A stretch of 19,251 nt of DNA, taken from positions 2,827 through 22,077 of IMG/VR virus record IMGVR_UViG_3300037067_008629; one strand, 5' to 3'. The notes below the pieces were generated by a model. It made no database searches. It saw nothing but the letters and a program-made list of their open reading frames with translations, and had not been told where the DNA came from. The position numbers and the translations under genes were made by a program. This DNA comes from a virus. Taxonomy: Duplodnaviria > Heunggongvirae > Uroviricota > Caudoviricetes. Shown piece after piece: positions 5,010 to 16,883 of this stretch; within the stretch, counting starts at the first letter, position 1, and each line of letters opens with the position of its first letter.

Positions 5010-5158
5010 TCTCTCCCGTCAAGTGCATTATGAACAACTAGTGGACCATCGGCATACGGTAGTCCATTTTCATCTAGCCATTCAACTCGTGGATCACACC
5101 AACAATCAGAGTTTTCTTGGTGTTCTCGTAAATCGTCAATTGGTAGCACATTTATCAT
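5006..5158 (-). CDS. small phage protein with H/C motif (50 aa, absent from ORF track)
   Basis: MINVLPIDDLREHQENSDCWCDPRVEWLDENGLPYADGPLVVHNALDGRE*. ATGA overlaps at both ends; the H...CWC...H residues suggest metal binding. Confidence 0.8.
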   Translation of the reverse strand: MINVLPIDDLREHQENSDCWCDPRVEWLDENGLPYADGPLVVHNALDGRE

Positions 5159-5988
5159 CGTGGCATCCTTACTACAGGGAGTCCGTCAAGAATCAGGTAA
5201 TTGGGTACATCATATTTATCGACAACAAGAACCACTTCTAATGCATACTTACAGATTTCAGCCATACCTTCATAATTGAGTTTGTCGGCCGTATCTGAAG
5301 CTTTATGATAATTTCGATGCAGCCCAGTATGCAAAAAGATTGCTGGAATCTTCTTTTCAAGAAACGATGCATTATCGCTACCTGGATCATTACGCAATGT
5401 CACTTGATTAGCAAATGGATACTTTTGAAACAATGGTTTCAGAAGACTCTCAATTTGTACCGGAGCCGTGAGTCCTGCCTTTAAATAGCCAATCATATCA
5501 ATATTGAGCATAAATAAATGCTTATCAATTGGCCACTTTGGGTTATCACAATAAAATTTAGACCCAATCAATTGCTGTTCTTCACCAGCATACAATTGAA
5601 AAGAAATAGTATGGCGTGTTGGGATATCCTTTAGCATTTTTGCTAACAACAGAACGCTCGCAGTACCGGAAGCATTATCATCAGCGCCTGGTGTGCCACG
5701 TACTGCGTCATAATGTGCCCCAATAACTATCACAGTATCTAATGCAGCAGTTTTAGTGGCAAGAATATTGCTTGCAGTCCAACGACCGTAAGTAAACTCT
5801 TGTGCTTCAACTGGGTATCCCAATCCGCTTAAGCGGGTTGTGAGATAATCAGCCGCTTCATTACAGCCTTTAGTGCCAGAAACACGCGACAAACTGGAAA
5901 GTTTAGTAACAGTTTCTCGAAGTTCTGGTGCTTGGCCGAAAACTGAGGTTGCGAATAAACATACAATAATAAATAGTAACTTTTTCAT
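5155..5988 (-). CDS. M28-family zinc peptidase with signal peptide
   Basis: GAHYD, GADDNASG, GEEQQLIGS, NIDMIG, SDNASF and YH motifs. N-terminal MKKLLFIIVCLFATSVFG is signal-like. Confidence 0.92.
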   Translation of the reverse strand: MKKLLFIIVCLFATSVFGQAPELRETVTKLSSLSRVSGTKGCNEAADYLTTRLSGLGYPVEAQEFTYGRWTASNILATKTAALDTVIVIGAHYDAVRGTPGADDNASGTASVLLLAKMLKDIPTRHTISFQLYAGEEQQLIGSKFYCDNPKWPIDKHLFMLNIDMIGYLKAGLTAPVQIESLLKPLFQKYPFANQVTLRNDPGSDNASFLEKKIPAIFLHTGLHRNYHKASDTADKLNYEGMAEICKYALEVVLVVDKYDVPNYLILDGLPVVRMPR

Positions 5989-7673: not shown

Positions 7674-7936
7674 ATCGACAGCATCCTCGAATGATTATCA
7701 TAAGCATCCAATGCTGCTAAAACATTTGGAATTGATTCTTTGTACTCTGGATGGTCTTTTACTATATCAAGTAGCCAAATAGCACAGTCTCGTGCTGCGT
7801 TCATTAGATTTTTACCGACACCTTTGACACTAGGCTTATAGCAAGTCGATACCATATAGTGTCCGTTCGCTCGGATATCAACCCGAATGCCCCCTTGAGC
7901 TTGTGCTAAAGCATTTAGTAGTTCTGCTTCTCTCAT
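7670..7936 (-). CDS. hypothetical protein
   Basis: 88-aa ORF; ATGA overlap with the def stop and a promoter-family copy directly upstream. Confidence 0.7.
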   Translation of the reverse strand: MREAELLNALAQAQGGIRVDIRANGHYMVSTCYKPSVKGVGKNLMNAARDCAIWLLDIVKDHPEYKESIPNVLAALDAYDNHSRMLSI

Positions 7937-8340
7937 ACTATAATCCTAGCACATATTTCTTGGTTTGTCAAGTCCCACGGTAATTTTCCATTTAAATGAT
8001 CCATTTCATGCTGTATAATAAACGCTTGTTGCTCAGCAAATACCCCCTCAGAAGTACTAATACGATTATATCGTTTACGAGTATAATCTACATTAGGAAG
8101 ACTGAGACACCCTTCATCTACATTTACTTCTTCTGAATAGTCATAAATAACAAGATTCTGAAATACTTGACCCCATGAGGTTACAAATAAATGTGCATCT
8201 AAACCAACTTGATTCGCAGCTAAGGCTATTCCACCTGACTGCCCTAATAGTATAAACATTTGATTAATTGTCTTTTGAGAGACAACAGCCCGTTTACACT
8301 TCATTAATAGAGCAGGGTCTGGATAAGTCAGTATTTGCAT
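7933..8340 (-). CDS. def: peptide deformylase (compact phage type)
   Basis: Motif 1 GIALAANQVG, motif 2 EGCLS, motif 3 QHEMDHLNG. Confidence 0.93.
   Translation of the reverse strand: MQILTYPDPALLMKCKRAVVSQKTINQMFILLGQSGGIALAANQVGLDAHLFVTSWGQVFQNLVIYDYSEEVNVDEGCLSLPNVDYTRKRYNRISTSEGVFAEQQAFIIQHEMDHLNGKLPWDLTNQEICARIIV
7937..7971 (-). promoter_or_regulatory. sigma70-type promoter, family copy C; predicted leaderless start
   Basis: TTGACA (7971-7966), 17-nt spacer ending TGTGC, TAGGAT (7948-7943), 6 nt (TATAGT), then ATG 7936. Encoded in the def C-terminal tail LTNQEICARIIV*. Confidence 0.7.
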
Positions 8341-8374
8341 ATTATAATTATACCACAGATTTTACGGTTGTCAA
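8332..8374 (-). repeat. 43-bp direct repeat, copy 1 (promoter D plus ATG CAA ATA of def)
   Basis: Checked base by base: identical to 9641-9683, with mismatching flanks on both sides. Confidence 0.97.
8341..8374 (-). promoter_or_regulatory. sigma70-type promoter, family copy D; predicted leaderless def mRNA
   Basis: TTGACA (8374-8369), 16-nt spacer ending TGTGG, TATAAT (8352-8347), a second TATAAT, then ATG 8340. Confidence 0.85.
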
Positions 8375-8520
8375 ATAGGTTGCATTTTATGCTGTTCTCT
8401 ATATTGTTGAATATGTAATTTTATATACTCAAGATGATACCACCTTGCGTCAATTGGTGGCCTATCAACAAATTCTAATGCCGATAGGTTTACACACTGC
8501 CTTTTCAATTGGTATGCCAT
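8371..8520 (-). CDS. candidate 49-aa protein overlapping the 3' end of the repeat gene (absent from ORF track)
   Basis: MAYQLKRQCVNLSALEFVDRPPIDARWYHLEYIKLHIQQYREQHKMQPI*. SD AGAGGA 6 nt upstream; the TGA stop lies within the -35 of promoter D. Confidence 0.4.
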   Translation of the reverse strand: MAYQLKRQCVNLSALEFVDRPPIDARWYHLEYIKLHIQQYREQHKMQPI

Positions 8521-9598
8521 TATTTATCCTCTGTCTAAGCATAGTTGTTGTGACTTGACAACGTAAATCTCTTGATACTGAACCTAGGGATGGGAACCAT
8601 TCTCCCCAAACAAAAAACTTTTTCTGTCGGCCCACTGCTCTATTTACTGCTTCATGGAGTGGTATACCCCTCTGGATTCTACCTCTAAGATTATCTAGAG
8701 ATACTTGACAACGAGCATCTTCTGCAACACATCGTAAAGAAGGGAACTTTTTGTTCCAGACAAAAAATCCAACTGACTTAGCAACTGGCTTAGCAACTGG
8801 CTTAGCAACTATTGACCTATTTTTTACTCTATGGCAAAGTGTGGTATAGGATACTTGACAGCGTGGGTCCTTAGCAACTTCTGCTAAAGAAGAAAACCAT
8901 TCTCCCCAGACTAAAAACTTTTCTTTTTGAATATTCTTCTGAGTTGCTTCTTCAAGTGTCAATCCATTATGGAATCTACGCCAAAGTGTTGTAAAAGATA
9001 CTTGACAACGTGGGTCTATAGATATAGCTTTTAAAGAAGGAAACTCTTTTCCCCACACAAAAAATGTTTCTTTTTTAACTGCCTCTTCGATTGTAATATT
9101 TTGTTTCATTCTATGTTTCAAGGTATCATAGGTTACTTGACATCTTGAATCATTTGCAATTGCTGTTAAAGATGGAAACTGTTCCTCCCAAACTGTGTAA
9201 AATTTTCCTAATCTGCCTATCCTGGGATTAAGAGCTTCTTCAATAGATAATCCATACTTGAGCCGTTTATACAATTGTTTGCTTGTAATTTTACATCTTG
9301 AGTCATTTAATACTGCTGTAATTGATGGAAATTTTTCACCCCAAACAACACACTCTCTACGTCTATTTTGATTTTTTACAGCTTGCTCAATTGTAACACC
9401 TTTTTGGACTTTTTGACACAGAGTTATATAATGAACCTCACACCGGCTGTCTTTGGCAATAGCATTTAATGATGAAAACCATTCATTCCAAACAAAAAAT
9501 CTATTAACCTTTAATTGAGTACTTTTAACTTCAGTACTAGGAATAGTTGCACAAGGTATTTTCTGTAATAAATTATCAGGTATTTTAATCGCTGGCAT
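8465..9598 (-). CDS. tandem-repeat protein with seven ~45-50-aa HTH-like modules; putative DNA-binding protein
   Basis: Consensus F-x-V-W-G-x-x-F-P-S-L-x-x-V/I-x-x-D-x-R-C-Q-V-S/T-x-x-x-L-x-x-R-x-x-x-G-x-x-x-E-x-A-V occurs 7 times. The CQV codons recur at 135-150 bp spacing (8555, 8705, 8855, 9002, 9137). Confidence 0.85.
   Translation of the reverse strand: MPAIKIPDNLLQKIPCATIPSTEVKSTQLKVNRFFVWNEWFSSLNAIAKDSRCEVHYITLCQKVQKGVTIEQAVKNQNRRRECVVWGEKFPSITAVLNDSRCKITSKQLYKRLKYGLSIEEALNPRIGRLGKFYTVWEEQFPSLTAIANDSRCQVTYDTLKHRMKQNITIEEAVKKETFFVWGKEFPSLKAISIDPRCQVSFTTLWRRFHNGLTLEEATQKNIQKEKFLVWGEWFSSLAEVAKDPRCQVSYTTLCHRVKNRSIVAKPVAKPVAKSVGFFVWNKKFPSLRCVAEDARCQVSLDNLRGRIQRGIPLHEAVNRAVGRQKKFFVWGEWFPSLGSVSRDLRCQVTTTMLRQRINNGIPIEKAVCKPIGIRIC
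8777..8810 (+). repeat. 12-bp tandem repeat (about 2.8 copies) encoding VAKP VAKP VAKS
   Basis: cttagcaactgg cttagcaactgg cttagcaact. Confidence 0.95.
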
Positions 9599-9616: not shown

Positions 9617-9649
9617 TTATTTATCAAATACATGCACAAATATTTGCAT
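9617..9649 (-). other. 10-codon upstream mini-ORF MQIFVHVFDK
   Basis: Starts at the ATG inside repeat copy 2 and shares its first three codons with def. Ends TAA 9619-9617, 18 nt before the repeat-protein ATG. Confidence 0.55.
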
Positions 9650-9683
9650 ATTATAATTATACCACAGATTTTACGGTTGTCAA
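9641..9683 (-). repeat. 43-bp direct repeat, copy 2 (promoter E plus ATG CAA ATA)
   Basis: Identical to 8332-8374; offset 1,309 bp. Confidence 0.97.
9650..9683 (-). promoter_or_regulatory. sigma70-type promoter, family copy E
   Basis: Same sequence as copy D. Encoded by the last codons of the 9657..9947 gene (LTTVKSVV*), whose TAA lies in the -10. Confidence 0.85.
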
Positions 9684-9948: not shown

Positions 9949-10809
9949 TTAGACTCCTACTGGTGGACTAACATTATAACGACTATGTACAACACCTAAT
10001 TCACCCGACCCTCTTTGGTGTTGTGGAACCCAGAATCGACCATAGACTCCACGGCCAAACATTCCAGGACCATCTTCCTTATAATGCATAAAATGCCCAC
10101 GACAAATATGCAATCGTTGTTGAATATCAGTTGAAGTTGGATTTGGATTTCGTCTGATTGTCGTTGGCTGAATATTTATCGTATGGTAAGAAACTTGCGG
10201 TACTTTGGTTCTACGATACCATTTTGCTGGTTGTGCATATTCATCTGTATCGTCTTGAATGGTAACATTCTTGCAATTCATAAATGATAAAGTATGTGCA
10301 ATAACACATGGTATACTAAAGGAAGTATCTTTATTACGAACTACACCCAGTATACTACCATTTGAATCTAGGCCAATTACAAATTCGCATCCAATAGTTG
10401 AAATTCTATTATTGACAAAATGAAATACAAATCCGCGAAGTTCACATTGTGTCTCTGGAGGTAGATTCTTAGTTAAATGTTTATTGACTAGTACTAGAAG
10501 CACACCAACTTGCGATGTATTTTGTCCTGACTTTATACCCTCTATTGGATCATAATTATTAATCCACTCAATAAAACATGCTTCAAATGGAGGTTTACCA
10601 CATCCCTGTCTTATATCATAGGCACTCAAAGGCTTATCTGCTGGAAATAAATACTTCTCAATATTATCAGCTATAATTATAGGTAAAGTATTTTTTTGTA
10701 GTCCAGTTATAAAGCTATGCATAATTTTTTCCCAAGTTGGATTATCAGCCAATTCTTTGGGTTGAAACGTACTTTTTTGTAATAAAATTCTATCAGCTAA
10801 TCTCAACAT
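9949..10809 (-). CDS. conserved-looking phage hypothetical protein
   Basis: 286 aa with SD GGAG. The C-terminal RLHICRGHF.HY...FWVP.H.RG..E.G.V...Y motif is recognisable from uncharacterised phage proteins. Confidence 0.8.
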   Translation of the reverse strand: MLRLADRILLQKSTFQPKELADNPTWEKIMHSFITGLQKNTLPIIIADNIEKYLFPADKPLSAYDIRQGCGKPPFEACFIEWINNYDPIEGIKSGQNTSQVGVLLVLVNKHLTKNLPPETQCELRGFVFHFVNNRISTIGCEFVIGLDSNGSILGVVRNKDTSFSIPCVIAHTLSFMNCKNVTIQDDTDEYAQPAKWYRRTKVPQVSYHTINIQPTTIRRNPNPTSTDIQQRLHICRGHFMHYKEDGPGMFGRGVYGRFWVPQHQRGSGELGVVHSRYNVSPPVGV

Positions 10810-11353: not shown

Positions 11354-11511
11354 TGAACTGCCTTTGAGGTTGCTTTGTAAACATCGGTCATCCCTTGATT
11401 ACCAATAGCCATACCACACAAAAAACTACCTCTTGTAATTCCCCAAAGAATTCCAAGACCCAGAATGGGTACTACATAACAAACCATCAAACATTTTAGA
11501 ATTATATTCAC
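11350..11511 (-). CDS. small membrane protein
   Basis: ORF track 11350..11553. GTG 11511 forms a GTGA overlap with the nrdJ stop; the N-terminal half is hydrophobic. Confidence 0.55.
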   Translation of the reverse strand: MNIILKCLMVCYVVPILGLGILWGITRGSFLCGMAIGNQGMTDVYKATSKAVQ

Positions 11512-14500
11512 GAGCAACCTCCTGAAGAACCACACCCATAACACAGGTAACAACTACCAACCCGTACACAGAGTTGGCCACAATTATCACAGATTGGTGC
11601 ATCTAGCGTACCAACTGAGGGACTATTTACATCTACTGGAATATTAGTTGTAAAATGATTTGCCAACCAGCGGAAAATATAATCAACAATTGACTTAGCA
11701 ATCTTTATATCTTTATTTTTCGTAAAGCCCATGGGCTCAAAACGTACATGAGTAAACTTATCAATAAATTCGCTCAGAGGTACACCATACTGTAGGCCAA
11801 TTGAAGTTGCCAGTCCAAAGCAATCAAATATACCGCCTAATGTACTCCCTTCTTTGGCTACTGATATAAAAATCTCTCCAGGTTTACCATCGGGATACAA
11901 ACCTACTGTGAAATAACCTTTATGGCCATCAATAGTAAACTTGTGTGTGATACTCTCCCGAGTATCAGGCAAACGATTCCGGATGCTAGTAGGGAGCAAT
12001 TCTTTCTTAATATTTAATGGCTGATAACCTTTGCTACCATCACGATAAATGGCCATTGACTTTAAACCTAGTTTCCAACCCAGCATATAAGCTTCTTGAA
12101 TATCGTCAATCGTTGAATCAGTTGGCATATTGATTGTCTTTGAGATTCCACCACTTAAAAATGGTTGTGCTGCTGCCATCATTTTTAGATGTGCTTGCCA
12201 AGGAATCTGATTATCTCCCAAGGAAGTTGCAAATACTTTTAATTCACTATTGGTTAAATACGGGTCTCCGATTAAAGTTTCAGTTGTTTCTAAGCGACTT
12301 AAAATACTTGTTTGTAGCTGTTCACTAATTCCTAAGGACCTCAGCCCCGCTTCTACAGATTGATTTACAAGCTTCAATGTACCACCACCAACAAGCGTCT
12401 TAGTTTTCACTAACGCAAGCTCTGGTTCAATTCCAGTTGTATCGCAATCCATTAGGAAACTAATGGTTCCAGTTGGAGCACAAAGAGTTACTTGCGAGTT
12501 ACGAAAGGACTTACAGACTAAAACTTCTTGCCATAAATTATCAGTGCCAATAGTTTGCGGATTTGCAGCAGCGTGCTTTTTTAATACTTTACCCATACTA
12601 ACTTTATCATAGGCTTCAAATGCTCCAAGTTCTTTCGCTATTTCTGCACTGGTCAAGTATGCCCTAGCAGTAAGAGTTGATGTAATCTTGCTGCAGAGTT
12701 GTCGCGATTCGTCCGAGTCATACGGTAACCCCATTGACATCAAAAGAGCACCAAGATTTGTAAATCCAAGACCTAATTGTCGGCAAGTATGTGCATTTCG
12801 GGCAATCTCTTCAAGTGGATAACTTGCCTGATCTACTAAGATATCTTGTGCAATAATAAGAATTCTTACAACTTTTTGAAACGTATCGTAATCAAATTGA
12901 CCATTCTTAAGAAATTTCAATAAGTTTATAGATGCCAAGTTACAGGCTGAACCGTTAGGTGCTAGAAATTCTGAATTATGCACCACAAGTCCATGTCTAT
13001 TACCAGAAGATGATACTACAAAATTATGTGTCCCTTCGACTTCCATATCATAGACTGGTACTCTTTTTTCTAAATGAATAAAGTCAACATTTTCGACTAC
13101 ATCATTTGTTAAATCTCTATTTTCATTAACCCATTGACAAAGTTCGGACCAACTTTGCCCTTGAATTGATTTACAATTAGCGGTGGGTAAGATATTGCTT
13201 AATTTCCATAGTTTTATATATTTATTCCAAAGAGCGGCACTAACATACCCATACATATCTTCAATAGTTTCATAGAATTCTACTAATGCTTCTGGTTCTA
13301 CATTAAGATAACGTGGATTATTCTTTCCCTTGGAATGCCCAGATAAATGTAAAAATTTTGATTTTAATTGTAAGTTTGAAAAACTATAGTTCTCAAGACT
13401 TTCATCAATATGATGGACGTGATAGTCATTAGAGACTGTGGTTCCTGTCGTCTGTTCATAAACAAAACGATGTAAATACTGACAACCATTAGGATGCTGT
13501 TTGGTACATTTATGATTTAACATTAAAACACCACGTCTACGTGGATTTTCTTTGATACTTAGTTTCTTGAGTCGATGCCCCGGCCTCAAATATTTTGCTT
13601 CTAATGTGTCTCCTTGGCGGGTGTAGAATAAATGTTCCGGCGTACAAGTTACAACAATACCCTTATTCGTAGTTACTTTAATTAAATTCTGTGTATATCC
13701 TGATCGCCAAATACGTTTTATTGTTTTTAGTACTGGTAAATTGGTGTCTAAATCATAGCTGAATACTTTTATATTATTTGCCCGCTTTTTAACCAGTTGA
13801 TTAAATGTTAGTTTACCTTCATTTGTGATGATTTCCGTGTCACCTGTGAAGCAACACGGATTTGAAGAATTGATTCTACCAACATGTGGTACAGTATTAT
13901 AATTATTGATAGTAGTTGAATACTGAACACCCGGATCACCACAGAGCCACGTACTCTCAGCAATCTTCTTCCATAAATCTCGTGCTTTAAATACTGGTCC
14001 ATTTTGTCCAGTAGTTACCCATTTAGTCACCCACTCCGTATCATTCTTAACAGCTTGCATAAATTCATCAGAAATTTGAATGCTAATATTCATATTCTGA
14101 TACATAACGGATTTTGCTGCCCGCTCTGGAGTTACACCACTCGCAATTAATAATCTTGCATGGGCTTCTTCTTCAGCTTTGCAGCTAATAAACTTATCAA
14201 TATCTGGGTGGTCAATGTTGAGACAATGTAACAATGCTGCCCTGCGAGTCCGACCTGCTGAAGTTACAACCTCTGCAACTTGGTCATAGATTCTCATAAA
14301 ACTAAGTGGACCAGATGAATGGCCACCGCCACTAATACCCTCGCATGTTGCACGTAATGGAGATAAGTTTGTACCTGTTCCAGAGCCAAACTTAAATAAC
14401 ATAGCATCGGTCTGAGCCAGGCCCATGATGCTATCCATATTGTCCTCAACGCCTTGGATAAAACAAGCAGAACCTTGTGGGTATTCAAATGGATTCTGAC

Positions 14501-14927
14501 AAGGTTCGACCTGCTGAGATTCCTTATTCCAATACCAATTACATGGCTCACCTATGACTCCATATTTTTGATAGAGTCCTACATTAAACCACACAGGTGA
14601 ATTAAATGCACAGTATTGATGCAATAATAACCATGTTAAATCATCACAAAACTCTGTACTATTTTCAAAGTAGCCATCTTCTACGCCCCATTGTGAAATT
14701 GTATCCGCAACTCTTGAAACTAATTGCTGGATGCTTGTTTCTCGGTCTGGAGTTCCAATTGCACCGTAGAAATATTTACTGGCAGCAATATTTACCGCCA
14801 TTTGAGACCAGCTGCTAGGTGCAAGAACATTTTCTTGTCGAAAAATTACCTTATCACCCTGCTTTATTTCAGCAGTCCTCTTTTCCCAAGTAATCGGTTC
14901 GCCACTAAATTGTCGCTCGTAATTCAT
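11508..14927 (-). CDS. nrdJ: adenosylcobalamin-dependent (class II) ribonucleotide reductase with intein
   Basis: AFNSPVWFN, SACFI, GSGTG, NPC|SE, ACNLASINL and APTGTISF motifs; TSCPD-like C-terminal domain and terminal Cys cluster; SD AAGGA. Confidence 0.96.
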   Translation of the reverse strand: MNYERQFSGEPITWEKRTAEIKQGDKVIFRQENVLAPSSWSQMAVNIAASKYFYGAIGTPDRETSIQQLVSRVADTISQWGVEDGYFENSTEFCDDLTWLLLHQYCAFNSPVWFNVGLYQKYGVIGEPCNWYWNKESQQVEPCQNPFEYPQGSACFIQGVEDNMDSIMGLAQTDAMLFKFGSGTGTNLSPLRATCEGISGGGHSSGPLSFMRIYDQVAEVVTSAGRTRRAALLHCLNIDHPDIDKFISCKAEEEAHARLLIASGVTPERAAKSVMYQNMNISIQISDEFMQAVKNDTEWVTKWVTTGQNGPVFKARDLWKKIAESTWLCGDPGVQYSTTINNYNTVPHVGRINSSNPCCFTGDTEIITNEGKLTFNQLVKKRANNIKVFSYDLDTNLPVLKTIKRIWRSGYTQNLIKVTTNKGIVVTCTPEHLFYTRQGDTLEAKYLRPGHRLKKLSIKENPRRRGVLMLNHKCTKQHPNGCQYLHRFVYEQTTGTTVSNDYHVHHIDESLENYSFSNLQLKSKFLHLSGHSKGKNNPRYLNVEPEALVEFYETIEDMYGYVSAALWNKYIKLWKLSNILPTANCKSIQGQSWSELCQWVNENRDLTNDVVENVDFIHLEKRVPVYDMEVEGTHNFVVSSSGNRHGLVVHNSEFLAPNGSACNLASINLLKFLKNGQFDYDTFQKVVRILIIAQDILVDQASYPLEEIARNAHTCRQLGLGFTNLGALLMSMGLPYDSDESRQLCSKITSTLTARAYLTSAEIAKELGAFEAYDKVSMGKVLKKHAAANPQTIGTDNLWQEVLVCKSFRNSQVTLCAPTGTISFLMDCDTTGIEPELALVKTKTLVGGGTLKLVNQSVEAGLRSLGISEQLQTSILSRLETTETLIGDPYLTNSELKVFATSLGDNQIPWQAHLKMMAAAQPFLSGGISKTINMPTDSTIDDIQEAYMLGWKLGLKSMAIYRDGSKGYQPLNIKKELLPTSIRNRLPDTRESITHKFTIDGHKGYFTVGLYPDGKPGEIFISVAKEGSTLGGIFDCFGLATSIGLQYGVPLSEFIDKFTHVRFEPMGFTKNKDIKIAKSIVDYIFRWLANHFTTNIPVDVNSPSVGTLDAPICDNCGQLCVRVGSCYLCYGCGSSGGCS
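12975..13853 (-). mobile_element. intein with HNH endonuclease in NrdJ (293 aa, residues 359-651)
   Basis: Begins CFTGDT and ends VYDMEVEGTHNFVV...VVHN, followed by Ser. Block B CTPEHLF; HNH-type LHRFVYE...VHHIDE..EN....NL. Confidence 0.95.
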
Positions 14928-15257: not shown

Positions 15258-16883
15258 TTATTCCAAATTAATTTGTAAAAGTTGATCGCCAAATACCGCA
15301 GGTAATGCTTTACCAAATTCTATTAGCACACCTTGCATTAACTGTCGAATTTGCCACTGTGCATGTTTATTCAAAGCTCTTTGAATAAAAATTGACCTCC
15401 ATTGACGTAGATTAGCTGTCATTACGATTTCAGTTTTAGTAGCATTAGGAAGACATTCACGAGCATCTTCTGGTGGAATACCTTTCTTAAGATAATATAA
15501 ATACTCCAGATAATTATCTGCACGACTAGCAAGCCACGTCCTACTTGGTCCAGTAAACCAATTATCTGGATACTTTTCTAAGAATTTATCATCCATATAA
15601 AAATTAAAGGTATTAACATCCAAAAAATGATAAGGACCACAGGGGATTCCAATCTTTGGTGGGCATATTACTTGAAAACCTTTTTTAGAGTAATTTACAA
15701 ATCTCTGTGATTCTTGGCAATTGTGGACAACAAAACCATTGGCGACAAAATTATGCCAAGGTGCTTCCATTTCAATATCATATGTCTCAGTTACTTTGTC
15801 AGGAATAATTGAGATTATGGTGTCTGAAAATACAGATTGTACGGCCTGACCGAAGTGAAATTGTTTATGACAGGGCTCGCAAAGAATACAAATATTGTCG
15901 GGCGTGTTATTTAAAGTATCTCCATCTTTATGGTGTCTAACAAGTCTCGCCTCTGTGGTGCCACAAGTAAAACATTGAATTGCCTTATATAATCTATTAG
16001 CCCGACAACGACCTGACATTGGTGTAGCATTCTCGCCCTTCCACATTGGGTTTTTAGCACCCAAATGTATTTTTGATAAATATTCAATAGCCTCAGGGGA
16101 AAACATTCCCTTTGTGCCATGTCCAGGGCGTCTATTAGGCCGCATTGAATGTGGCTTTTGTAAACCAAAATGACGTAACCATTTTCCGAGAAAAGATTCA
16201 CTCACTCCCGCTTTTTTAGCTACTTCTGCTCGGGTTAAATTTTGTCTAAGATAAAGATTTTCCAACCATTCTTTATTTTTGTAAGCCAAAAGTCCGTTAG
16301 CAATAATCTTATCTCCGGGCTTTAATTGTGAGAGTTTTTTCCACCCATTAGGCGTCAAAAATCTATGGTTAGCTGTTGCTCGAATATCTCGGCCAAATTC
16401 AGAAGTCACTTTATAGACTTGTTGCCGTCCACTATAGCTAATAGACTTTATTCCATTGGCAATTAAAACCCCCTCCGAATTCACACTTCGTAATTTAATT
16501 AGTTTTAATCGTCCTTTTCTCTTTGGATCAAGAGACATGTTATAAAGCTGTTCTAAAGTCCAACGTTTTGCATGGTGTCGTTTCGCACTAGGCATTGATA
16601 CCACAGTAGTATCTCCGGCGAGACAATATGAAGCAATTCTATGCCGAACGAGTTGATGGCTCATTGACCGTGAGCCAATAATTCGTACACTTGCTGAAAC
16701 ATGCTCTAATACACTATCATGCCCTAAATCTCGAATCATTTTAACAAACTTAGATGCTGAATCATTAGTGATTCTATCTTCACTTTTATAGGCCGTTCTA
16801 CCCGCTAACTCCAATAACTTCAAATGCTCATCATTTAGTGGAGTTAAAATCTCAATTCTCGGTGGAACTACTGTTATTAACAT
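15258..16883 (-). CDS. thyX: FAD-dependent thymidylate synthase with intein
   Basis: GH.SVLEH, the RHR-X7-S motif (RHRIASY|CQES), EDARECLP...TEIVMTANLRQWR and HAQWQIR. Confidence 0.95.
   Translation of the reverse strand: MLITVVPPRIEILTPLNDEHLKLLELAGRTAYKSEDRITNDSASKFVKMIRDLGHDSVLEHVSASVRIIGSRSMSHQLVRHRIASYCLAGDTTVVSMPSAKRHHAKRWTLEQLYNMSLDPKRKGRLKLIKLRSVNSEGVLIANGIKSISYSGRQQVYKVTSEFGRDIRATANHRFLTPNGWKKLSQLKPGDKIIANGLLAYKNKEWLENLYLRQNLTRAEVAKKAGVSESFLGKWLRHFGLQKPHSMRPNRRPGHGTKGMFSPEAIEYLSKIHLGAKNPMWKGENATPMSGRCRANRLYKAIQCFTCGTTEARLVRHHKDGDTLNNTPDNICILCEPCHKQFHFGQAVQSVFSDTIISIIPDKVTETYDIEMEAPWHNFVANGFVVHNCQESQRFVNYSKKGFQVICPPKIGIPCGPYHFLDVNTFNFYMDDKFLEKYPDNWFTGPSRTWLASRADNYLEYLYYLKKGIPPEDARECLPNATKTEIVMTANLRQWRSIFIQRALNKHAQWQIRQLMQGVLIEFGKALPAVFGDQLLQINLE
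15720..16625 (-). mobile_element. intein with HNH endonuclease in ThyX (302 aa, residues 87-388)
   Basis: Begins CLAGDT and ends TYDIEMEAPWHNFVANGFVVHN, followed by Cys. Block B ATANHRF; HTH-like LTRAEVAKKAGVSESFLGKWLR; HNH C..C...RHHKDGDTLNN..DNI..LC..CH..FH. Confidence 0.95.

Follow-up and report, generated by a model that had tools for sequence, protein, structure and literature searches.

We analyzed a 19,251-nt stretch of DNA (the window) that lies in an 86-kb phage record from IMG/VR (IMGVR_UViG_3300037067_008629, positions 2,827 to 22,077). Near-identical sequence is present in groundwater and landfill metagenomes. The window includes the gene for P0001, a protein that consists largely of seven copies of a small unit. 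As described below, P0001 appears to be an array of helix-turn-helix (HTH) modules of the kind found in homing endonucleases, with no nuclease attached, and it is likely to bind double-stranded DNA (dsDNA). It is the sole gene with this module in the 86-kb record.

The array gene and its protein

The gene for P0001 (8465..9598 on the minus strand, including the stop codon) is a single intact open reading frame (ORF) of 377 amino acids that starts with ATG. The protein is strongly basic, with 63 lysines and arginines versus 33 aspartates and glutamates (pI 9.85). It has an N-terminal leader of 33 amino acids (9500..9598, minus strand), which lacks any family match, then seven units of 45-51 amino acids each, and then 5 C-terminal amino acids. 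This matches what a first-pass annotation, made from the sequence alone, had described. The motifs that it reported as near-invariant were found in all seven units: VW (at residues 36, 85, 136, 181, 230, 280, and 330), D.RC (at residues 50, 99, 150, 195, 244, 294, and 344), and F[PS]S[LI] (7 of 7 units). E.A[VLT] is present in six of the seven units and is missing from unit 5, again as reported. The variable octets that follow RCx[VI] were also exactly as listed.

The first-pass annotation saw no HNH, GIY-YIG, or PD-(D/E)xK motif, and three results agree with that. First, a Pfam scan found no nuclease domain in P0001, so the protein lacks the catalytic part of a homing endonuclease. (Pfam and NCBIfam scans gave no real match to P0001.) Second, just 6 further codons of open frame precede the ATG (383 amino acids from stop to stop), so there is no hidden N-terminal domain. 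Third, tblastn with relatives that bear GIY-YIG, LAGLIDADG, or HNH domains found no nuclease remnant near the array gene. The 33-residue leader does not significantly resemble the N-terminus of P0003, a relative with a GIY-YIG domain. In PHROGs, P0001 matches phrog_1065 (unknown function, 1.5e-13) and the C-terminal part of phrog_3377, which is annotated as "HNH endonuclease" (1e-10).

A promoter-bearing cassette

The array gene is bracketed by identical 43-bp direct repeats at 9641..9683 and 8332..8374 (both on the minus strand), which are 1,309 bp apart. Each repeat comprises TTGACA, 16 nt, TG-TATAAT (12/12 consensus), and then ATGCAAATA. The downstream repeat provides the promoter of def, the gene for peptide deformylase (135 amino acids; 7933..8340, minus strand), together with its first three codons, and def lies directly downstream of the cassette. 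The upstream repeat shares sequence with the final codons of a 96-aa ORF. A mini-ORF of 10 codons (9617..9649, minus strand) begins within this repeat and, as read from the sequence, starts with the duplicated start codons of def. The mini-ORF ends 18 nt before the ATG of the array gene, and this ATG is preceded by a weak AAGG Shine-Dalgarno only. A third and diverged copy of the promoter, with 8 substitutions, is at 1900-1942, and it too is followed by an ATGCAA start. (Transcription from these promoters is predicted to give leaderless or nearly leaderless RNAs.)

Judging from this layout, the cassette is probably a moron-like insertion that brought a promoter with it and went into the first codons of def. 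Recombination between the 43-bp repeats would be able to excise it. No relative without the cassette was found (the best match to a def query was 42% identical), and a search for close phage relatives found none for the 96-aa ORF. Similarly, none of the contigs from four metagenome runs joins across the cassette. (A low-coverage landfill contig, from run X3, links 9640 to 8332 through the 43-bp repeat. This join could be a circular or tandem cassette, or an assembly path from uncovered flanks, and we did not use it as evidence.)

Seven diverged units

Units 1 to 7 correspond to residues 34-78 (9365..9499), 83-127 (9218..9352), 134-178 (9065..9199), 179-223 (8930..9064), 228-272 (8783..8917), 278-322 (8633..8767), and 328-372 (8483..8617), all on the minus strand. 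Units 2 and 3 were modelled (see below). Unit 7 is 56% identical to the first unit of P0003 and to the first unit of P0004. Unit 5 is atypical in that its final short helix is lost and (AKPV)x3 is found there instead. DNA repeat analysis shows that this linker, which joins units 5 and 6, is encoded by a 12-nt tandem triplication (8770..8810, minus strand).

At the DNA level, a 62-nt block occurs seven times at a spacing of 135-153 nt, with 65-76% identity to the reference copy. The cores of the units have an average identity of 46% in protein and 59% in DNA. Nonsynonymous divergence (dN) among the units is about 0.45 and synonymous divergence (dS) is about 1.5, which is saturated. Because of these identities, this dN, and the saturated dS, we view the units as old duplicates whose scaffold has been held under constraint, and not as a chance pattern or as recent slippage. 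In a maximum-likelihood tree of 20 units, the branching of the P0001 units was not resolved, and the tree does not tell whether the array grew by internal duplication.

Predicted fold of the unit

A single-sequence AlphaFold2 (AF2) model of all of P0001 was unusable (pLDDT 35). With an alignment of unit pairs (alignment A2, 134 rows), AF2 folded units 2-3 with a pLDDT of 91.5. In this model, each unit has a beta-hairpin, a short helix 1, an 8-residue loop with the D-x-R-C motif, a variable 9-residue helix 2, a glycine turn, and lastly helix 3, which is short. How the two units are oriented relative to each other is not fixed in the model (pTM 0.57).

Foldseek with the two-unit model returned nothing significant from the PDB or from AFDB Swiss-Prot. 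We also ran an exhaustive scan of 48,161 representatives against the unit-pair model with VIA-align. The top three matches are all dsDNA-binding HTH domains: the DNA-binding domain of I-TevI (1t2t, residues 203-241, score 3.1), the Paulinella DNA-binding protein sCTP-23166 (8b6e, residues 3-47, score 3.1), and I-HmuI (1u3e, residues 120-165, score 2.6). (These are the regions that align to unit 3.) A profile search of PDB sequences did not recover I-TevI or I-HmuI. Its sole returns were designer PPR proteins, which we rejected as spurious: a V-T-Y-x-T-L ... E-E-A-L word worth 2.6-3.4 bits is summed over nine identical repeats.

Variable positions and the conserved cysteine

We compared 993 units. 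The scaffold is highly conserved (G5 in 91% of units, W14 in 92%, D17 in 94%, R19 in 93%, C20 in 81%, R30 in 97%, G34 in 90%, and A40 in 94%), and the least conserved positions are 21, 24, 25, 28, 29, 32, and 33. Positions 24, 25, 28, 29, 32, and 33 form one face of helix 2 (i, i+1, i+4, i+5, i+8, and i+9). So, the hypervariable helix positions that the first-pass annotation proposed to look for do exist, and they lie together. At the variable positions, the residues in P0001 are mostly polar, basic, or aromatic. This face fits what would be expected of a recognition surface. A point that weighs against this interpretation is that variation would be expected on any exposed face, whether it contacts DNA or not.

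The first-pass annotation suggested that the conserved cysteine could be structural or redox-sensitive. The cysteine is replaced by alanine or serine in 12% of units, and it has no conserved partner ligand within the unit. Because of these two observations, it is most simply explained as a small structural residue and not as a metal or redox site, so of the two suggestions the structural one is favored.

A module family with many nuclease-free arrays

We built a profile of 44 positions (profile A1) from 25 seed units, including the seven from P0001, and searched it against 1.84 billion representatives. At E ≤ 1e-3 it recovered 9,905 proteins, of which 403 reach E ≤ 1e-30. All seven units of P0001 match the profile with independent E values of 1e-18 to 1e-21 (these units were in the seed). 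They carry the conserved G5, D17, R19, C20, R30, G34, and A40 that mark what we call the D-x-R-C module. The largest number of units in one matching protein is 28.

We tallied architectures for the best 151 of the 9,905 matches. More than half of these (79 of 151) are arrays of units only, by which we mean that any stretch outside the units, whether terminal or internal, is shorter than 60 amino acids. These arrays have 4-28 units (median 6), and 72 of the 79 have a methionine start. The first-pass annotation had raised the prospect that homologs always carry a nuclease, and this is not the case. It had also proposed to collect homologs to see if the number of repeats varies, which it does, both across the family and at a single locus (see below).

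The Pfam scans covered the 53 proteins with at least 80 amino acids beyond the units at one end or at least 100 amino acids between units. These include MTES_1575 or Vsr-like nucleases (6 proteins), GIY-YIG-type domains (LEM-3, T5orf172, or MUG113; 6 proteins), and LAGLIDADG (1 protein). Many of the long extensions had no Pfam assignment. A recurrent architecture is 4-8 units followed by a C-terminal region of about 280 amino acids (P0040, P0051, P0076, P0079, P0093, P0097, P0105, and others). This region has a weak match to the MTES_1575 restriction-endonuclease fold in five members and to Vsr in one. These proteins are probably EDxHD/Vsr-like homing nucleases with the module as the targeting arm.

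A word-indexed search with P0001 found four relatives (P0002-P0005). P0003 and P0004 combine a LEM-3-like GIY-YIG domain with 3 and 2 units, respectively; P0005 has LAGLIDADG_3 and 3 units; and P0002 has an HNH-like N-terminal stub and 10 units. P0004 is surrounded by small unknown genes on a phage-like contig. Relatives of P0002 in cultured phages of Bacillus, Staphylococcus, and Enterococcus are annotated as HNH endonucleases. Overall, the module is found as a DNA-binding appendage of homing nucleases of the GIY-YIG, LAGLIDADG_3, MTES_1575/Vsr, T5orf172/MUG113, and (by annotation) HNH types.

Arrays of units are also present in cellular genomes. A degenerate DNA pattern for the consensus unit matched 74 stretches in species-representative genomes, including Armatimonadota, Planctomycetota, Streptomyces, Nocardia, Kitasatospora, candidate phyla radiation (CPR) bacteria, and one archaeon. 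Among these stretches are complete stop-to-stop ORFs with units only, located in the interior of contigs: L096 (9 units), L141 (8 units), L089 (7 units), L133 and L125 (6 units each), and L100 (5 units). With P0001 itself as the query, tblastn against 50,697 phage records gave no match, and a search of genome contigs gave no relative.

In one case, we could compare arrays at an orthologous locus. In two high-GC bacterial genomes (L003 10001-18258 and L163 139-2358), arrays lie upstream of a gene for an FAA-hydrolase. The FAA-hydrolase proteins are 95% identical, and the flanks are 91-98% identical in DNA. L003 has adjacent genes with 28 units (1537 amino acids) and 22 units (1202 amino acids), versus one gene with 14 units (739 amino acids) in L163. 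The DNA of the arrays matches only piecewise between the two genomes, at 64-89% identity. (Just upstream of the arrays in L003 are genes for a ResIII helicase, an N6_N4 methyltransferase, and an AAA_15 ATPase. Another array lies 5 kb from a GmrSD gene.) From these comparisons, we take the nuclease-free array to be a common state of the module family, and we take the number of units to change fast.

Relation to known systems

The first-pass annotation likened the unit to the NUMOD1/IENR1 modules. Part of this holds up. NUMOD1/IENR1-type modules are also about 45 amino acids, and they have a beta-hairpin and an HTH, as is predicted for the P0001 unit, with the second helix expected to lie in the major groove. 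They are C- or N-terminal to GIY-YIG, HNH, or other homing nucleases, sometimes in two or three copies, and we did see the association with homing nucleases. But a sequence-level match is absent: NUMOD1 (Pfam PF07453; IENR1 is SMART SM00497) does not match P0001 even at E ≤ 10. Also, the P0001 unit has a longer loop between the helices, with D-x-R-C, and an extra short third helix. And unlike NUMOD1 proteins, P0001 has seven copies and no nuclease, and the wider D-x-R-C family has up to 28 copies. The module is of a known kind (a homing-endonuclease HTH), but in sequence terms it is not a member of NUMOD1.

P0003 and P0004, which are metagenomic and uncharacterized, share the unit sub-type VWGE.F.SL ... 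D.RC and a phage-like context with P0001, but their N-terminal part is a LEM-3-like GIY-YIG domain, and they have no more than 2-3 units. The DB-sCTPs of Paulinella chromatophora (sCTP-23166, PDB 8B6E) are free of nucleases and bind dsDNA with a KD of 3.4 nM (PMC10319021). They have a conserved core, and the residues of the DNA-proximal helix are variable (PMC10319021). P0001 is predicted to have the same class of fold, and it too has no nuclease. However, the DB-sCTPs are eukaryotic nuclear-encoded proteins with a single module of about 50 amino acids, while P0001 is a covalent array of seven modules from a phage, and no sequence similarity between P0001 and the sCTPs was detected.

TALE, zinc-finger, and Myb arrays are functional analogs only. 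In them, small units that read DNA are arranged in tandem, with the scaffold constant and the contacts variable, but their folds are unrelated to that of P0001. P0001 itself shows a pattern of variability on one helix face, and modular reading is a possibility. To our knowledge, the longest Myb-type HTH arrays have 3-5 units.

P0001 does not match PVL_ORF50 (Pfam PF07768) at the gathering score. The long relatives P0006 and P0008 reach 32-33 bits with this model, but the score is summed over many units and no single stretch passes. In a feature search of the Atlas, P0001 is near clusters of phage proteins of 260-520 amino acids with multiple HTHs (psq, HTH_36, or NUMOD1), with scores of 0.85-0.87, and we treat these as leads only. 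Neither Pfam nor NCBIfam has a curated model for the D-x-R-C unit, and literature searches for NUMOD1/IENR1 arrays and for tandem-HTH arrays turned up no paper on long nuclease-free arrays.

What might P0001 do?

The first-pass interpretation, a nuclease-free array that could read a long DNA site, is partly supported. We think it likely that P0001 is a nuclease-free, multi-HTH dsDNA binder that acts by occupying a long site. DNA binding, its mode, the length of the site, and the biological role are what we infer. DNA binding is supported by the predicted fold, by the charge of the protein, by the use of the module in four classes of nucleases, and by the precedent of the sCTPs.

The seven modules are diverged copies of a homing-endonuclease type of module, each with the predicted anatomy described above, from the beta-hairpin to the short helix 3. 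Every one of them would most likely set helix 2 into a major groove of dsDNA, and the hypervariable face (i, i+1, i+4, i+5, i+8, and i+9) would be the outward face of that helix. With the short linkers, all seven could be laid out in a row on a site several tens of base pairs long. As P0001 has no catalytic domain, its effect would come from occupancy, such as repression or blocking at one long and specific site. Its transcription is probably driven by the perfect sigma-70-type promoter, and its gene would be the cargo of a moron-like cassette of 1.3 kb that seems to have been inserted in the first codons of the phage's def, with duplication of the promoter and the start codons.

I-TevI represses its own gene through its DNA-binding domain. 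Because the I-TevI match (1t2t) is, according to the title of the entry, the DNA-binding domain bound to an operator site, and because I-TevI is self-repressing, a role for P0001 at the duplicated promoter is attractive by analogy.

We considered three other explanations. First, P0001 could be the decaying remnant of a free-standing GIY-YIG homing endonuclease that has lost its nuclease, and it could be functionless cargo on its way to deletion. After all, its closest sequence relatives (P0003 and P0004) are GIY-YIG endonucleases on phage-like contigs, and the location of the array gene, a discrete insertion of the intergenic type, is like that of free-standing homing endonuclease genes. Also, unit 5 has partly degenerated and contains an insertion of the slippage type, and the phage genome has only one gene with the module. 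Nevertheless, a remnant seems unlikely. P0001 has seven units, versus 2-3 in the relatives that bear nucleases. Its frame is intact, and the scaffold has been kept in all seven units despite the saturation of dS (dN ~0.45, dS ~1.5). There is no trace of a nuclease upstream or in another frame, the leader is unlike the N-termini of the relatives, and the array gene has its own perfect promoter. The idea of a truncated remnant is further weakened because nuclease-free arrays are common (about half of the best family matches), because they are complete genes in cellular genomes, bacterial ones among them, and because the number of units is variable.

Second, P0001 could be the DNA-targeting subunit of a split system, and it could bind a long site and recruit or block a separately encoded nuclease or other effector in trans-acting homing, protection of the phage's own sites against a homing endonuclease, defense, or counter-defense. 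We consider this quite unlikely. No partner gene is conserved across the neighborhoods that we examined, and PHROG and Pfam scans of the neighboring genes in the phage found no recognizable nuclease domain and no partner. The module does serve as the targeting arm of at least four classes of nucleases in relatives, the two giant arrays of L003 adjoin the helicase, methyltransferase, and ATPase genes, and one further array is near a GmrSD gene, but proximity to defense genes amounts to these two loci. A further point in favor of a split system is that the phage carries several homing elements (inteins, described below).

Third, long repeat arrays often bind proteins or RNA, and sCTP-23166 pulled down the protein CP43 too (PMC10319021), but it is very unlikely that P0001 is a scaffold that binds RNA, single-stranded DNA, or proteins instead of reading dsDNA, given that its three best fold matches are dsDNA-binding HTH domains, that relatives have the same module attached to DNA endonucleases, and that the protein has a strong positive charge.

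Returning to P0001 as an occupant of a long site on dsDNA, a broader and tentative idea is that D-x-R-C arrays are natural readers of long sites. Each module might read one subsite, so that 4-28 modules might cover tens to hundreds of base pairs, and new specificities might arise fast via duplication of units and changes to the face of helix 2. The phage array, on its promoter-bearing cassette, might then occupy its own family of promoters, the target of a homing endonuclease, or host DNA.

The HTH modules of homing endonucleases are known from nucleases that carry one or two of them, and in the large family described here the same module forms nuclease-free arrays with as many as 28 units. 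Should the modules read DNA additively, they would be a further natural architecture for recognizing very long sites, besides zinc fingers and TALEs. This would be testable, as the units are small and fold well, and it is already clear which parts are scaffold and which face varies. In terms of phage biology, parts of selfish elements would then be seen to be reused as nuclease-free DNA binders on promoter-bearing cassettes.

Other genes in the window

Homing elements are frequent in this phage genome, as there are inteins in two of its enzymes. The class II ribonucleotide reductase (RNR; 11508-14927, minus strand) has an intein that carries an HNH_3 domain, and ThyX (15258-16883, minus strand) has an intein with matches to HTH_28 and HTH_3. 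A 286-aa ORF is at 9949-10809 (minus strand). Over its C-terminal 110 amino acids it matches phrog_20769 (unknown function), and a single distant relative was found, on the high-GC phage contig L002. Besides the short (135-aa) peptide deformylase, the phage encodes an M28-family peptidase (5155-5988, minus strand).
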